DNA of 64,000 bases from assembly GCA_903894565.1 (NCBI GenBank), contig CAITQP010000007.1, forward strand, positions 28,213 to 92,212. The letters are read 5' to 3'. The notes beneath the pieces are model-generated. The model was not told the origin of the DNA. It worked only from the letters and a program-made list of their open reading frames with translations, and did not search any database. Shown piece by piece: positions 28,950 to 41,373 of the stretch. Numbering within the stretch: the stretch's first letter is position 1; every line of letters begins with the position of its first letter. The translations under genes and the position numbers were made by a program. Source of the stretch: an uncultured bacterium. GTDB taxonomy: Bacteria; Patescibacteriota; Minisyncoccia; Phycocordibacterales; UBA9973.

Positions 28950-30062
28950 ATGAAAACACCTTACGAAAACGAGCAGATAAAGAGGCAATTCTTTGAGCAG
29001 TTAAAAGGCGCTCGGGGGTTTGCCAAAAGCTCGGTGCGTACTCACGCCGACGCCATCACACAATGGGATACCTTCAATCAGAACGAGGACTATTCCACCT
29101 ACGATAAATCAAAAGCTGCCGCCTTTACGGAGTGGCTCAGCACGAGACCCGCCAAATCAAAATCCGGCAAAGTTTCCCTTGTTACCCAGTCGAACTATAT
29201 TCGCCGCATAAAGAAGTTCTTTGAGTGGCTTTGCGAACAGCCCGGCTACAAGAGCAAGATACAAAAAAACGATGTGGACTACTTACGCCTCTCAAAAGCG
29301 GATGCCCAAATCGCACGTTTGGGAACCACCAAAAAAATGCCTACCTTTGAGGACGCTAAAAAGATAATCGAGGGCATTGATGGCAAGTCCGAAATCGACA
29401 TGCGCGACCGTGCCCTCATCTCTTTTGCGCTCATCACGGGTGCTCGCATCAATGCCATCATTTCCTTGAAGATGAAAAGCTTTGACAAAGAGAAGAAACA
29501 AATCGACCAGAACCCAGGTGACGGAGTGAAGACCAAAAACACGAAACGAATACTTACCACATTCTTCCCAATTGGTTGGGACGATCCAGAAAAATATTTC
29601 ATGGAATGGTATGAGTACTTGGAGTCAAAGGGTTTTGGACCTGATGAGCCGATCTTTCCGATGACATCCCATTCTTTTGGCGGAGGAGAAAATAGCTACA
29701 GTAAAGAAGCCATTGGGCAAGATGCTTGGGTTGGCACAGGCGCGGCACGCAAGATTTTTGAAAAGCGATGCAAAAGTGCCTACCTTCAGTATTTCCACCC
29801 GCACTCCTTTCGCCATTTGGTTGTAAGCATCCTTAGCAAGAAACGCCTTACCGAGGAAGAGAAGAAAGCGATCAGCTTAAATCTGGGACACGAGAATGTC
29901 ACGACCACATTTGGATCATATGGATATGGCGCTATGAGCAATACGGATGCCGTCAAAATCGTTCAGAAATTGAAGGATATTCAAGAAGGTTCGAGCGATA
30001 CTCTGGCACTCACCGACCAAGAAAGGGCCGTTTTCGAGAAAATAGCTAAGCGTATCTTGTAG
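28950..30062 (+). CDS. int: tyrosine-type site-specific recombinase/integrase
   Basis: Catalytic Arg in ALITGARINAI, box II HPHSFRHLVV (HxxR), and LGHENVTTTFGSYGYG containing the catalytic Tyr region. Confidence 0.8.
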   Translation: MKTPYENEQIKRQFFEQLKGARGFAKSSVRTHADAITQWDTFNQNEDYSTYDKSKAAAFTEWLSTRPAKSKSGKVSLVTQSNYIRRIKKFFEWLCEQPGYKSKIQKNDVDYLRLSKADAQIARLGTTKKMPTFEDAKKIIEGIDGKSEIDMRDRALISFALITGARINAIISLKMKSFDKEKKQIDQNPGDGVKTKNTKRILTTFFPIGWDDPEKYFMEWYEYLESKGFGPDEPIFPMTSHSFGGGENSYSKEAIGQDAWVGTGAARKIFEKRCKSAYLQYFHPHSFRHLVVSILSKKRLTEEEKKAISLNLGHENVTTTFGSYGYGAMSNTDAVKIVQKLKDIQEGSSDTLALTDQERAVFEKIAKRIL

Positions 30063-30091
30063 ACTTGCAATGTAAACAATAGTAAAGTAAA

Positions 30092-30274
30092 ATGAAAGAC
30101 ATGGAACAAGATTTTTACACCGCCCGAGATTTGGCCGACAGGCTCGGCCTGAACATTATGACGATCTACCGCTGGATCGGAGCGAAGAAGCTCAAAGCGT
30201 ATAAGCTCGGCAAGGAATTCAGAATTGAGAAAAAGGATTTCGATGCTTTCTTAAAGAAGGCAAGCAATAAATAA
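30092..30274 (+). CDS. excisionase-family HTH DNA-binding protein (Xis/AlpA-like)
   Basis: 60 aa with YTARDLADRLGLNIMTIYRWI, the HTH_17 pattern. Confidence 0.6.
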   Translation: MKDMEQDFYTARDLADRLGLNIMTIYRWIGAKKLKAYKLGKEFRIEKKDFDAFLKKASNK

Positions 30275-30278
30275 CATT

Positions 30279-31925
30279 ATGCAAACAGAAGCACCACAAA
30301 AACTCAAATACGGCATGTACGGCCGAAAATCTAGCGAGACCGAAGATCGCCAGGTCCTTTCGATTGACTCCCAGATCGATAGCGCAAAAGCTATCTGCAA
30401 AAACCTCAATATCCGTATTGCGGATGAGGATGTTTTAACCGAGTCAAAATCAGCAAAGACCACAAACCATCGCCCGCTATTCAAGGAGATGCTCGACCGA
30501 CTAGAGCATGGCAAGATCAACGCCATCGTCGCGTGGCACGCTGACCGCCTCTCGCGTAACGCCATCGACTCCGCACTCCTCGTCGATATGATGGATCGCG
30601 GCAAGCTGATCGAAATTGTTACTCCTGGGCAAACGTATCGAAATACGCCATTTGATAAGTTCATGTTCACTCTCGCTTGTACCCAAGCAAAAATGGAAAA
30701 CGACAAGAAAGGTATCGACGTTACGCGAGGGCTTACAAAGAAAGCGACTATGGGTATGTTCCCTGGCCCTGCGCCGTTCGGCTATCTGAATGATAAGTTT
30801 ACAGAGAAAGGAAATAAAAAAATCATCACCGACAAAGTGCGTCTCCCTCTTATCCGCAAAATGATGGAGCTGATGCTAACCGGCACATACGGACCACTTC
30901 AAATCCGAGAGATTGCAACGAACGAGTGGGGCTACCGAACTCCCAAAGGCAAGAAGATGGGTCGAAGCACGATCTATCGCATCTTCACAAATACCTTTTA
31001 CTACGGCATGTACGAGTACCCACTCGGAAGCGGTCGTTGGTATCGTGGAACGCACGAGACGATCATCACCGAGGAGGACTACGACAAAATCCAAGCACTC
31101 CTCGGTCGTAAGGGCCGTCCTCGTCCGAAGACCCATATCTTTGATTTCGTAGGAATGATGAAGTGCGCCGACTGCGGCGCGTCTATTACAGCCGAAACAA
31201 AGTTCAAGAAACTCGCCAATGGCGATGTGAACACTTACGTTTACTATCACTGCACCAAGAAGCTCAATCCGAACTGCACGCAAGGATCAATAGAGGAAAA
31301 GGAACTTAAAAAGCAGATCGTCCGCGAGATCGACAAAATCGAAATACCAACCGAGTTCCACGCCTTTGCCATGAAATGGTGGAAGACCGAAAACGAGAAG
31401 GAAGTCGACGACCGCAACACTATCGTCGAAGCCCAACAGAGGGCCTATAAGGCTTGCCTTGCGAAGATAGACGGCCTGACCAATATGAGAGCGGGCGGCG
31501 AAATCGAGGGGGACGAATTTATCCGACGCCGAGAGCCGCTTCTTGAAGAAAAGAAGCGTTTGGAGAAACTATTTGAAGGCACGGGTAAACGCGTTGATGC
31601 CTGGATGAAGACCGGCGACGAAATGTTTACTTTCATCGAGCGAGCAATAAACCGCTTCACTTACGGTACACTTGAAGACCGCCGAGCCATACTTGCGGCT
31701 CTCGGCTCGAACCTACTCATAAAAGACAAAATACTCAGTATTGATATAGAGAATTGTCTATTCCCAATACAAAATATTTCAGGCACTGTCCGAGACATAA
31801 AAGAACGGCTCGAACCAATAAATACCCTGGAAAAACAAGGACAGTTTGAGCAAATGTGCTCTAACAGTCCAGTAGTGCTGCCAGACCTGGATTCGAACCA
31901 AGATACACTGCTCCAGAGGCAGTAG
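30279..31925 (+). CDS. large serine recombinase (resolvase domain plus recombinase domain plus zinc ribbon)
   Basis: N-terminal YGMYGRKSSETEDRQ...SIDSQ (catalytic Ser) and a resolvase fold. Zinc ribbon CADCGAS...YYHC. The 3' 48 nt overlap the tRNA-Gln on the opposite strand. Confidence 0.85.
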   Translation: MQTEAPQKLKYGMYGRKSSETEDRQVLSIDSQIDSAKAICKNLNIRIADEDVLTESKSAKTTNHRPLFKEMLDRLEHGKINAIVAWHADRLSRNAIDSALLVDMMDRGKLIEIVTPGQTYRNTPFDKFMFTLACTQAKMENDKKGIDVTRGLTKKATMGMFPGPAPFGYLNDKFTEKGNKKIITDKVRLPLIRKMMELMLTGTYGPLQIREIATNEWGYRTPKGKKMGRSTIYRIFTNTFYYGMYEYPLGSGRWYRGTHETIITEEDYDKIQALLGRKGRPRPKTHIFDFVGMMKCADCGASITAETKFKKLANGDVNTYVYYHCTKKLNPNCTQGSIEEKELKKQIVREIDKIEIPTEFHAFAMKWWKTENEKEVDDRNTIVEAQQRAYKACLAKIDGLTNMRAGGEIEGDEFIRRREPLLEEKKRLEKLFEGTGKRVDAWMKTGDEMFTFIERAINRFTYGTLEDRRAILAALGSNLLIKDKILSIDIENCLFPIQNISGTVRDIKERLEPINTLEKQGQFEQMCSNSPVVLPDLDSNQDTLLQRQ

Positions 31926-31948
31926 TCCTACCATTAGACGATCTGGCA
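31878..31948 (-). tRNA. tRNA-Gln (anticodon CTG)
   Basis: Cloverleaf folded by hand: acceptor TGCCAGA/TCTGGCA (U1-A72 as in bacterial tRNA-Gln), D arm GTCT/GGAC, anticodon stem ACTGC/GCAGT with loop CTCTGGA, T arm CTTGG-TTCGAAT-CCAGG, discriminator G. CCA is not encoded. Confidence 0.8.
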
Positions 31949-39277: not shown

Positions 39278-39278
39278 G

Positions 39279-39352
39279 AGCCACCTCTCGGGATTGAACC
39301 GAGGACCTTCTCGCTACGAGTGAGATGCTCTACCAACTGAGCTAAGGTGGCG
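39279..39352 (-). tRNA. tRNA-Thr (anticodon CGT)
   Basis: Hand-folded: acceptor GCCACCT/AGGTGGC, D arm GCTC-AGTTGGTA-GAGC, anticodon loop CTCGTAG, T arm CTCGG-TTCAATC-CCGAG. 74 nt, no encoded CCA. Confidence 0.85.
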
Positions 39353-39371
39353 TATATATTTATACTTTACA

Positions 39372-39824
39372 CTAAACTTTTTTACTCGCAAGAATCCGCG
39401 CATCTTTAATTCTTTTACTTACGCTCCGGTTCGTTCTTCCGTTTCCTTTATTAGCACCTGCATATGTAGGAGTTAATGAGTCGCAATTCGGGCAAAGTAA
39501 CCGTAGATTGCTTTCAACATTGTTATGCCAGTTACCATCAATGTGGTCAGCAACAACGGGAACTTTCCCTGTCTTTTGATTTATCTGCGACCAGCCACAC
39601 AAACAACACTTATCTCCGTACTTTTCCCGCAAATATATTTTGATCGCAGTTGAAACGACACCGATACTTTGTAGTCCTTGAATCTTTCCCGACTTCCATT
39701 TTTCGATGTACACAGCGCGTTGATATGCACCCTGACATGCGTTGCTACAATATTTATACTTTGCACTTGCTGGCTCCTTACCACAGTACAAACATGGTGT
39801 CCTGAATTTTTTAGGATTCGGCAT
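39372..39824 (-). CDS. HNH endonuclease (free-standing, homing-endonuclease-like)
   Basis: HNH motif CCLCGWS...VADHIDGNWHNNVESNLRLLCPNCDS. N-terminal CxxC pair (CLYCG...CSNAC). Begins 46-82 nt 3' of the intron-containing tRNA. The ORF could extend to 39860 only with a TTG start. Confidence 0.6.
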   Translation of the reverse strand: MPNPKKFRTPCLYCGKEPASAKYKYCSNACQGAYQRAVYIEKWKSGKIQGLQSIGVVSTAIKIYLREKYGDKCCLCGWSQINQKTGKVPVVADHIDGNWHNNVESNLRLLCPNCDSLTPTYAGANKGNGRTNRSVSKRIKDARILASKKV

Positions 39825-39905
39825 AACCTTATTGTAAGTGAACAATCGTTCACATGTCAAACATCTTCTTGTTGAAACAAGACTAAAACATTATTGTTTC
39901 AGTGA

Positions 39906-40159
39906 GCCGTTGTCCGGGATCGAACCGGAGACCTCATTCTTCGCTTACACCTCCTTTTTATATATAGAAGAGGGCTAGACTGTATATTTCTCCTCTTTCG
40001 AGGAAACCCTTGTCAGTCGTTCGGGCGAAACAATTTCGCCACGGTCTTGGCCAATCTGGCTATTAACCGTTATTCGGGATTCACCCAAAGATTACTCTCT
40101 GAGTGGGCAGGAACTGCGTTCCACCATGAATGTGCTCTACCAACTGAGCTACAACGGCT
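39906..40159 (-). tRNA. intron-containing tRNA (probable tRNA-Arg, anticodon region xCG; ~181-nt intervening sequence in the anticodon loop)
   Basis: The 5' exon (40127-40159, GCCGTTGTAGCTCAGTTGGTAGAGCACATTCAT) gives acceptor strand, D arm and the 5' anticodon stem CATTC. The 3' exon (39906-39945, ...GCGAAGAATGAGGTCTCCGGTTCGATCCCGGACAACGGCT) gives the 3' anticodon stem GAATG, the T arm CCGG-TTCGATC-CCGG and acceptor CAACGGC, which pairs perfectly with the 5' exon. The two halves are separated by ~181 nt. Confidence 0.6.
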
Positions 40160-40209
40160 TCTGTAATTTTCAATCAGTCAAAAGTGACCAACTTCGCAAT
40201 ACTACTAGA

Positions 40210-40791
40210 TTACGAGGCTTTTTTCAATCTCCCACGAAGGACCAAGAAACACATGACTCCTCCACACACAGTCAAATATGCAGGAAAAAGTACTACTCCA
40301 TATGAAAATCGTGGAATCGTGGCGACAAGCGATGTGATGTAGCTCAAAAGAAAGAGCAACCACGTCGCAAGATTCTCAGTAGAAGCATCGAGATACGTTT
40401 TACGCATTGTCGGAAGAAACGCAACTGCATCGGCGCACAAGCTCAGTGTAAGAGAAAAGTTTGCCGAGTGAAACATCACATACGTCACGATCGCAAGCAG
40501 TGAAAACCCGAGACAAAAATAATCAAATAGTGAAAAATCACCTTTCCAATTTCGGAAAGAAACACACATTATAATAAACGGCAGAATCGTCCCTGCAAAC
40601 GCAAATGGAAGTGTTTCGCGCGCGCCAACCTGTACATACAAATACGCACTAATAATTCCAATAAGTGTCCAAAGCATCCAACTGAACGGGTGCGGTTTCG
40701 TCTCCCCTCTCACAATCGAAAAGATGTATGGAATATATGCGATTATAAAAATGAATGCGGAGAGAATACCGAAAAATTGGTACAACGTCAT
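40210..40791 (-). CDS. hypothetical integral membrane protein (193 aa)
   Basis: Six hydrophobic helices. ATG start at 40791 (the listed 40809 start is not an ATG). Confidence 0.5.
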   Translation of the reverse strand: MTLYQFFGILSAFIFIIAYIPYIFSIVRGETKPHPFSWMLWTLIGIISAYLYVQVGARETLPFAFAGTILPFIIMCVSFRNWKGDFSLFDYFCLGFSLLAIVTYVMFHSANFSLTLSLCADAVAFLPTMRKTYLDASTENLATWLLFLLSYITSLVATIPRFSYGVVLFPAYLTVCGGVMCFLVLRGRLKKAS

Positions 40792-40918: not shown

Positions 40919-40947
40919 ATCTATTTTCTCGGACGTGAGTCCGATTG

Positions 40948-41021
40948 TGTCGGCGGGAGGGATCGAACCTCCGACCTTGGGCTTATGAGTCCCACGCTCT
41001 AACCAACTGAGCTACGCCGAC
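40948..41021 (-). tRNA. tRNA-Met (elongator-type, anticodon CAT)
   Basis: Acceptor GTCGGCG/CGCCGAC fully paired, anticodon loop CTCATAA, T arm GGAGG-TTCGATC-CCTCC. Could alternatively be tRNA-Ile2 (lysidine). Confidence 0.75.
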
Positions 41022-41257
41022 ATCTCTATAAGTTCCAACTTCTTCGTTCGACTGAGTTTTTTAATCTCAGCTTCCCGTCGAAGCGCGTTTCCGCGCGTCC
41101 CGCACGATTCACTATATACGCACGCAGTAACAGGGTGGCTCTTCGTGTAGCGCGCGCCTCTACCCTCTTTGTGTGCAGTAAACCTTCTATCCAAGTCGTT
41201 GGTACTTCCTGTATAAAGGCTCCCGTCTTCACATTGTAGAATATAGACGAACCACAT
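41012..41257 (-). CDS. GIY-YIG nuclease superfamily protein (YhbQ/UPF0213-like)
   Basis: WFVYILQCEDGSLYTGSTNDLDRRFTAHKEG...YTKSHPV matches the GIY-YIG core. Stop codon TAG lies inside tRNA-Met (10-nt overlap). The N-terminal extension to 41359 was rejected. Confidence 0.6.
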   Translation of the reverse strand: MWFVYILQCEDGSLYTGSTNDLDRRFTAHKEGRGARYTKSHPVTACVYSESCGTRGNALRREAEIKKLSRTKKLELIEMSA

Positions 41258-41302
41258 AGTGCATGCAACCCTTGTCACTTGCACGCATCCGTAGGATGCT
41301 TG

Positions 41303-41373
41303 TTGCGGGGCCCGGAATCGAACCGGGGTCTCAAGGTTATGAGCCTTACGAGATACCACTTCTCCACCCCGCG
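41303..41373 (-). tRNA. tRNA-fMet (initiator, anticodon CAT)
   Basis: Acceptor CGCGGGG/CCCCGCA with unpaired C1-A72, the bacterial initiator hallmark. Anticodon loop CTCATAA with G-C pairs next to the loop, T arm CCCGG-TTCGATT-CCGGG. 71 nt. Confidence 0.75.

Follow-up and report, generated by a model that had tools for sequence, protein, structure and literature searches.

A split tRNA-Thr(GGU) gene with a probable, very small group I intron, and a separately distributed HNH nuclease gene, in a Patescibacteria chromosome fragment

Group I introns inserted between nucleotides 36 and 37 of tRNA-Thr(GGU) have been described in three complete Patescibacteria genomes (Nakagawa et al. 2026, mSystems; PMC13011429). 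All three were reported as 'not detected' with the Rfam model RF00028, two of them were called Arg(GCG) with an intron at 34/35 by ARAGORN, and 3/3 were assigned to Thr(GGU) 36/37 by the tFind model gpI_bact_tRNA.cm (Williams 2020) (Table 1, PMC13011429). The same paper, which cites Castelle et al. 2018, named them 'divergent group I introns' and placed them on a long branch with the IA-type tRNA introns of Patescibacteria; its splicing assays were done on Asn and Asp introns at 35/36, not on the Thr introns. Bacterial tRNA introns overall were given as 184-894 bp long, and the available portion of the supplement shows no Thr introns in other phyla (PMC13011429). Here we analysed a stretch of 64,000 nucleotides from an uncultured bacterium (contig CAITQP010000007.1, positions 28,213 to 92,212), hereafter the window, which carries on its minus strand a tRNA-Thr(GGU) gene split by an insertion of 181 nt, with a gene for an HNH nuclease immediately downstream. 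The insertion is very probably a divergent and very small group I intron of the published Patescibacteria tRNA-Thr family, and its core would act by the chemistry of that class.

The window copy shares with the published introns the host tRNA, the anticodon, the insertion site and the phylum, as well as the failure of RF00028 and the miscall as Arg(GCG). Its length is similar, lying just under the 184-bp minimum of the paper, and nothing essential differs. The intron family is therefore already known. What we add is its presence in at least 120 species, a lower size of 175 nt, a structure tested by covariation, a junction read from an intron-less allele, and the separation of the intron from the HNH gene. 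An earlier reading of this stretch, made from the sequence only, had named an unusual class of intron among the options that a length below about 200 nt might point to; since the family spans 175-230 nt and is published, length carries no such meaning.

Host tRNA and position of the insertion

Inspection of the minus strand revealed a full cloverleaf in two halves, the split gene extending over 40158..39905. The acceptor stem is formed by GCCGTTG (40158..40152) and CAACGGC (39912..39906), the anticodon stem by CATTC (40132..40128) and GAATG (39939..39935), and both a D arm and a T arm are present. The halves of the anticodon stem are 188 nt apart, which in any register amounts to seven loop nucleotides and a 181-nt insertion. 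The insertion holds just a 37-aa ORF (open reading frame) with a TTG start, which is not meaningful, and it folds at -62 kcal/mol (z = -4.6), a value that 0/200 shuffles equalled. A tRNA gene split in its anticodon loop by about 181 nt devoid of an ORF is what the sequence-only reading had described, and the cloverleaf, the gap and the ORF list bear this out; the ends it gave to the two halves, near 40127 and 39945, had to be moved to 40123 and 39941. No CCA is encoded in exon 2. The gene was overlooked by default ARAGORN and, over the whole window, by the Rfam tRNA and Intron_gpI models at their gathering thresholds. Its parts are as follows.

40123..40158, minus strand: exon 1 of tRNA-Thr(GGU), with the acceptor 5' strand GCCGTTG, the D arm, CATTC and loop nucleotides 32-36 (AUGGU)
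40125..40123, minus strand: anticodon GGU, written GGT in 109/109 homologues
39942..40122, minus strand: intron of 181 nt, very probably divergent group I, at 36/37; starts GGAACGC and ends GUAAGCG, with omega-G at 39942
39905..39941, minus strand: exon 2, with A37 and A38, GAATG, the variable loop, the T arm, CAACGGC and discriminator U (39905)

Eight registers are possible for the insertion, and a single one combines a 5' exon ending in U with an intron ending in G; it reads ...CAUUC AUGGU-intron-AA GAAUG.... Because this is the sole register that obeys the splice rules of group I introns, it defines the anticodon as GGU (Thr) and the insertion site as 36/37. Comparison of 109 distinct split genes agreed with this register, as GGT at positions 34-36 was invariant. 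A terminal G in the intron followed by AA at the start of the 3' exon was found directly in 106/109 genes, and in 109/109 once three boundary errors of ARAGORN had been corrected. The anticodon stem occurred in 17 covarying forms across the same homologues. The last three bases of the intron, on the other hand, differed from gene to gene (GCG, GTG, TCG, ACG, GAG). GCG is the commonest of these endings, which explains how an xCG (Arg) anticodon came to be read here; the ending varies, and GGT never does.

ARAGORN with introns allowed did call the window gene as Arg(gcg) i(35,181), in a register that breaks the group I rules, and the intron of the window does end in GCG. A tRNA-Arg host with a GCG or other xCG anticodon, split at 33/34 or 34/35, would however require G as the last base of the 5' exon or A as the last base of the intron, and would place the anticodon in the three variable nucleotides of the intron rather than in the invariant GGT that intact alleles also show. 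Position A20 is an identity element of tRNA-Arg, and the D loop here has U at position 20. The published assignment by tFind and BLAST-based comparison is likewise Thr(GGU) 36/37 (PMC13011429). We regard an arginine host as so improbable that it can practically be set aside, and with it the loop AU/GCGAA and the xCG anticodon proposed from the sequence only.

The junction was located by comparison with an intron-less homologue, a check that the sequence-only reading had itself suggested. The intact tRNA-Thr(GGU) gene of metagenome locus L181 has the same sequence as the two exons of the split L131 gene put together, and reads ...TTGGTAATGACG...; the two sequences part exactly after T36 and rejoin exactly at A37. 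Since the exons of L181 and L131 are identical, the junction is fixed between T36 and A37. Of the ends that had earlier been left ambiguous, a 5' exon closing at U33 or at G34 is thus replaced by one closing at U36, and an intron ending in G is retained. We also considered the L131/L181 pair as a case of recent gain or loss of the intron, and rejected this because the flanking sequences are unrelated; the identity of the exons therefore reflects conservation of the tRNA only. The spliced product was called tRNA-Thr by ARAGORN, and its top matches in E. coli, among the matches listed, were all annotated as tRNA-Thr. In the long ORFs of the window, 44% of the threonine codons are ACC or ACU, which need tRNA-Thr(GGU). 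We can conclude that the host gene is tRNA-Thr(GGU), not tRNA-Arg, and that the intron lies between nucleotides 36 and 37.

Intron family, structure and predicted splicing

One genome per species was scanned with two conserved core blocks as the search pattern, and the same split gene was found in at least 120 species-level genomes, nearly all with source labels of Patescibacteria lineages. The lengths among the 109 distinct genes range from 175 to 230 nt, so that the window copy stands towards the short end. A 181-nt member was also present in Niastella populi CCTCC AB 208238, a cultured member of the Bacteroidota (L034:5226-5424, minus strand, on a 300-kb contig). By eye, a tyrosine recombinase-like ORF neighbours this intron and a conjugative coupling protein-like ORF lies farther off; this neighbourhood could represent a route of horizontal transfer for the intron. 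A few other family members carry 'Gammaproteobacteria' or 'Pedobacter' labels of metagenome-assembled genomes (MAGs), which are unconfirmed.

An alignment of 106 sequences (A1) was tested against an explicit group I-style helix model. Standard pairs filled 89.8% of the cells, as against 33-47% when the 3' partner was slid by 1-3 columns, and 37 pairs changed on both sides; the observed values were reached by 0/500 shuffles. Covariation was seen in the P1 extension, P2, P5, P6, P8 and P9. The elements of the window copy are listed below from the 5' end of the intron.

40110..40122, minus strand: P1 extension, the hairpin GGAAC-GCA-GUUCC, which immediately follows the splice site; it covaries and is part of the minimum free energy fold
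40106..40108, minus strand: putative internal guide sequence GCC, predicted to pair with G34 G35 U36 (P1, with a U36-G wobble at the 5' splice site)
40082..40105, minus strand: P2, 10 bp, with a GUAA (GNRA-type) tetraloop; 10/10 pairs change on both sides
40076..40078, minus strand: predicted 5' strand of P3, CCC, with its pseudoknot partner GGG at 40009..40007; followed by J3/4, GAAUA
40041..40070, minus strand: P4 (ACGGU/ACCGU), J4/5 UAAUA, P5 (GCCA/UGGC) and J5/4 CAAG; P5 covaries and P4 is invariant
40024..40040, minus strand: P6 hairpin GGCGAAA-UUG-UUUCGCC; 6/7 pairs change on both sides
40007..40018, minus strand: 5' strand of P7 GACUG, J7/3 ACAA and 3' strand of P3 GGG, in agreement with the Rfam consensus AGACUAAA...; invariant, in part as a condition of the search pattern
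39989..40006, minus strand: P8 hairpin UUUCCUC-GAAA-GAGGAGA; 7/7 pairs change on both sides
39978..39988, minus strand: J8/7 AAUAUA and 3' strand of P7 CAGUC
39950..39973, minus strand: P9 hairpin CCUCUU...AGGAGG with an A/U-rich loop; 5/6 pairs change on both sides
39942..39949, minus strand: 3' tail UGUAAGCG, 8 nt, ending in omega-G (G in 109/109 after boundary correction)

The core resembles known group I introns in several of its motifs. Against the Rfam group I consensus, taken from the alignment of an 81-bit RF00028 intron in L003, J8/7 with the 3' strand of P7 reads AAGAUACAGUC in the family and AAGAUAUAGUC in Rfam; P7 is GACUG/CAGUC versus GACUA/UAGUC, so that both sides of one pair differ; and J3/4 is GAAU in the family and gAAU in the consensus. 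Exon GGU and guide GCC were invariant in 106/106 aligned sequences, with the P1 extension lying between them. P3 was paired in 100% of cases and almost invariant, two C-to-U changes giving U-G. RF00028 gave weak full-length matches to two family members, L039 with 22.8 bits (E = 0.034) and L013 with 15.4 bits, the gathering score being 50 bits. The L003 intron used for the consensus is itself canonical (81 bits) and splits a tRNA-Met(CAU) gene at 33/34 (L003:497-783, minus strand); neither tRNA-Met gene of the window (40947-41021 and 41302-41373) has an intron.

Some alternative pairings were examined and not retained. A 6-bp P1 candidate, AUUCAU/GUGAAU, with splicing after U33, is unconserved in L003 and L009 and needs an intron ending in A. 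A longer P3 (AAUCCC/GGGUUU) was rejected, since the nucleotides that follow GGG have their covarying partners in the 3' strand of P8. For a P9.0-like pairing of J7/9 (GC) with the dinucleotide preceding omega-G, there was too little variation for covariation.

Several results weigh against the group I assignment. P1, P3, P4 and P7 lack covariation, being invariant or almost so in A1. The search pattern had P7 and the 3' strand of P3 fixed, with P1, the 5' strand of P3 and P4 left free, and the invariance is therefore due in part to the pattern itself and gives these catalytic-core pairings no independent support. P3 has 3 bp in the family versus 7 bp in the Rfam consensus. The covariance search with the Rfam group I model, a further check put forward from the sequence only, gave no match to the window copy even at E <= 10, over the region 39800..40300. 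No P10 candidate was seen by eye, except for a possible A37-U pair beside the guide sequence, and a splicing assay of a tRNA-Thr intron was not found in the literature searched, in which Castelle et al. 2018 was not covered. Set beside the covarying helices, the conserved J3/4 and J8/7 and the group I splice-site signature, these points leave a divergent group I intron as the very probable identity of the insertion. The sequence-only reading had offered a minimal group I intron, an unusual intron class or a non-spliced insertion, and it is the first of these that stood; the unusual class gave way to a family that is already published.

The non-spliced insertion deserves separate mention, since default tRNA finders and RF00028 both fail on the gene, and a second tRNA-Thr(GGU) was looked for within the 64-kb window only. 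If the gene were a dead pseudogene, another tRNA would have to read ACC and ACU. Against this, at least 120 species keep both exons intact, the anticodon stem and the intron helices covary while the core and the splice sites are invariant, and no intron-bearing locus was found to contain an intact tRNA-Thr(GGU) gene. Copies with and without the intron that share an anticodon seldom occur in one genome (PMC13011429). A pseudogene is accordingly highly improbable.

As a group I intron, the insertion probably splices itself, a suggestion based on established group I chemistry and on the predicted fold. Exon nucleotides G34-G35-U36 would pair with the intron guide GCC to form P1, placing a U-G wobble where cleavage would occur, and the anticodon stem would keep both exons together. 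The compact core, made of P4-P6, the 3-bp P3 and P7 enclosing P8, and joined by J3/4 and J8/7, would provide the guanosine-binding site. An external guanosine bound at P7 would attack after U36, and the 3'-OH of U36 would then attack after the terminal G (39942). Ligation would join ...CAUUCAUGGU to AAGAAUG... (in DNA, ...CATTCATGGT followed by AAGAATG...) and yield a normal tRNA-Thr(GGU) reading ACC and ACU. Catalysis, the pairings P1, P3, P4 and P7, and splicing free of protein are the parts of this scheme that we infer by analogy.

The element might instead be derived from group I introns and non-autonomous, able to splice only with a protein cofactor or with scaffolding by the tRNA exons. 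Its minimal core with the short P3, the lack of peripheral domains, the length of 175-230 nt, the failure of RF00028 and the failure to find a published splicing assay for Thr introns would all fit such a dependence. Yet P2 retains its GNRA-type loop throughout the aligned family, a trait typical of self-folding RNAs, and the family occurs in many small-genome lineages of Patescibacteria without a conserved neighbouring gene. Related Patescibacteria tRNA introns self-splice in vitro (PMC13011429). We consider dependence on a cofactor or scaffold unlikely.

The HNH gene and the tRNA neighbourhood

The window contains the bacterial core genes ligA, gatCA, prfB, ftsEX and pyrG together with several type IV pilin-like genes, and is a fragment of a Patescibacteria chromosome. 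Where homologues of its HNH protein are named, they are labelled Patescibacteria, Parcubacteria or Azambacteria, in line with a host from the Patescibacteria or Candidate Phyla Radiation. L001 and L002 are the same contig in ENA and Logan assemblies, and the syntenic relative L003 is an NCBI MAG assembly. A phage origin was rejected on the basis of the bacterial chromosome context; a search of a phage database returned just tRNA-Thr genes and one stretch of HNH gene (Enterococcus phage iF6, 69% identity). Two features follow the split tRNA.

39372..39824, minus strand: HNH nuclease gene, 150 aa, with an N-terminal four-Cys zinc ribbon and an HNH motif; starts 80 nt after the 3' end of the split tRNA
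39278..39351, minus strand: tRNA-Thr(CGU), conserved downstream of the HNH gene as its partner

The sequence-only reading had placed the start of this nuclease ORF within 90 nt of the tRNA 3' end, and the measured 80 nt agrees with it. Across 22 sequences the N-terminal four-Cys zinc ribbon is invariant, as are D93-H94, N98/N101/N102, N106/N113, C73/C76 and C111/C114, which gives the beta-beta-alpha-metal motif (DH...N...N/H) with flanking Cys pairs of the HNH superfamily. The Pfam HNH_3 match was weak (E = 0.0018, below the curated cut-off), and searches of NCBIfam and PDB with the protein gave motif-level matches only, the best solved structure being I-HmuI, a phage HNH homing endonuclease, at a weak E = 0.24. 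More than 1,500 homologues were found; the best 120 listed are 65-74% identical, and their source names, where given, are Patescibacteria lineages or unclassified bacterium.

We then compared the distribution of the HNH gene with that of the intron. Among 96 intron loci with enough downstream sequence, HNH lay within 1.5 kb in 17 and was absent in 79. In 11 of the 109 intron genes tRNA-Thr(CGU) came straight after the split tRNA, with no HNH, and 70 had neither a tRNA within 400 nt nor HNH. Where HNH did follow the split tRNA, tRNA-Thr(CGU) came next in 16/16 evaluable loci. The converse sample comprised 80 metagenome loci (L131-L210), with HNH as the sole basis of selection. Downstream of HNH, tRNA-Thr(CGU) was present in 77/78 evaluable loci, where it either overlapped the HNH stop codon or lay 0-80 nt beyond it. 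Upstream, the 70 evaluable loci showed a split tRNA-Thr(GGU) in 11, an intact intron-less one in 10 and tRNA-Gly(CCC) in 11; a single locus had tRNA-Arg, and the other 37 had no tRNA. The order HNH, tRNA-Thr(CGU), prfB, ftsE, ftsX was kept in divergent lineages. Since HNH tracks tRNA-Thr(CGU) and not the intron, it forms a unit with that tRNA.

These counts bear on an arrangement that the sequence-only reading had favoured, an intron with a free-standing HNH endonuclease in collaborative homing, in which HNH would cut intron-less tRNA-Thr(GGU) alleles and the two would spread together. The position of HNH 80 nt downstream of the split tRNA, repeated in L003, L009 and the 17 genome loci, speaks for it, as do the match to I-HmuI, weak as it is, and the occurrence of adjacent tRNA-Thr(GGU) and tRNA-Thr(CGU) genes with or without HNH between them, which resembles insertion or deletion. 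On the other side stand the 79 of 96 intron loci that lack HNH, the 49 HNH loci without any upstream tRNA-Thr(GGU), the near-constant downstream tRNA-Thr(CGU), and its synteny with prfB and ftsEX over divergent lineages. In addition, the 10 loci with an intact allele beside HNH carry the very site that an enzyme targeting 36/37 would cut. Collaborative homing is thus very unlikely, and the proposal is not upheld. The HNH gene is a separate module at the 5' flank of tRNA-Thr(CGU), neither required for the intron nor specifically tied to it, and may be a free-standing endonuclease of a selfish kind or, alternatively, a resident nuclease. A literature search on HNH, tRNA-Thr and Patescibacteria found nothing, and the HNH/tRNA-Thr(CGU) link is, as far as could be found, a distinct and undescribed regularity.

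Other features were noted around these genes. The tRNA-Met genes of the window flank a GIY-YIG ORF of 80 aa (41012-41254, minus strand; Pfam E = 9e-19), and the corresponding place in L003 (L003:1140-1763), between tRNA-Met and tRNA-Asp, holds an ORF with faint LAGLIDADG matches; three nuclease families are interspersed in the tRNA cluster. In L181 (700-1118) and L009 (3830-3950), one or two extra copies of the last ~17-30 nt of tRNA-Thr(GGU) follow the gene, spaced by ~90-160 nt of non-coding sequence, as if small elements had repeatedly integrated at the tRNA 3' end; inspection of the window by eye showed no repeat of this kind. An isolated fragment resembling a tRNA 5' half (GCCTGGATAGCTCAATGGTAGAGCAATC), with no matching 3' half, lies just upstream of HNH in L005 (3905-3935). 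Elsewhere in the window, a serine recombinase gene (30279-31925) runs into the end of tRNA-Gln(CUG) (31877-31948), and a phage-integrase-family gene (28950-30062) adjoins it, both by Pfam labels; the region 28950-31948 is probably a mobile element integrated at tRNA-Gln(CUG).

Significance and comparison with known systems

Genomes of this kind seem to lack tRNA-Thr(GGU), because standard tools miss this essential tRNA or label it Arg(GCG). The published remedy for annotation applies here, namely tFind or comparison with intron-less tRNAs. The family offers a group I core that is both compact and highly conserved, with the smallest members at 175 nt and a P3 of 3 bp, in at least 120 species including the cultured Niastella populi; its breadth and the cultured member make a direct test of a minimal natural group I ribozyme practical, and the intron is now separated from the neighbouring HNH gene. 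If the intron splices without protein, with the anticodon stem as part of its scaffold, every natural self-splicing group I intron so far characterised by experiment would be larger. The Thr introns might be a naturally minimised group I ribozyme and, as a separate matter, the HNH gene a free-standing selfish cassette whose homing site across Patescibacteria is the 5' flank of tRNA-Thr(CGU); we put this reading forward tentatively and with somewhat less than even confidence.

The small tRNA introns of Azoarcus and Agrobacterium are inserted after nucleotide 36, with a 5' exon ending in U, a P1 of about 3 bp, GNRA-capped hairpins and an anticodon stem that aligns the exons; the tRNA-Ile intron of Azoarcus is 205 nt long. 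They reside reportedly in tRNA-Ile(CAU) and tRNA-Arg(CCU), respectively, belong to subgroup IC3, and are said to have been described by Reinhold-Hurek and Shub in 1992. The 36/37 site of the tRNA-Arg group I intron was confirmed in the literature; that on the smallest group I introns, Azoarcus included, gave no usable size floor. The Thr introns are likewise small bacterial tRNA introns after nucleotide 36. At 175-230 nt they are counted as shorter than the 205 nt of Azoarcus, and their P3 has 3 bp. Unlike the IC introns, they are grouped with IA (PMC13011429) and go undetected by RF00028.

With the RF00028 consensus, the Thr intron has in common the order P3, J3/4, P4-P6, P7, P3', P8, J8/7, P7', P9 and omega-G, a near-identical J8/7 and P7, and the same J3/4 GAAU. 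It differs in its shortened P3, its simple P6 and the absence of extra peripheral helices, and the contrast in score is large, as the tRNA-Met intron of L003 reaches 81 bits whereas the Thr intron of the window is unmatched at E <= 10.

For the HNH gene, the nearest described cases are SegB of phage T4, a free-standing homing endonuclease in a tRNA cluster, and MobE with the nrdB intron of T-even-like phages, an example of collaborative homing. The HNH gene is likewise a small nuclease gene between tRNAs, present or absent between adjacent tRNA-Thr genes. Those systems belong to phages, whereas the gene described here, known from sequence alone, resides in a bacterial chromosome and tracks tRNA-Thr(CGU) rather than the intron.

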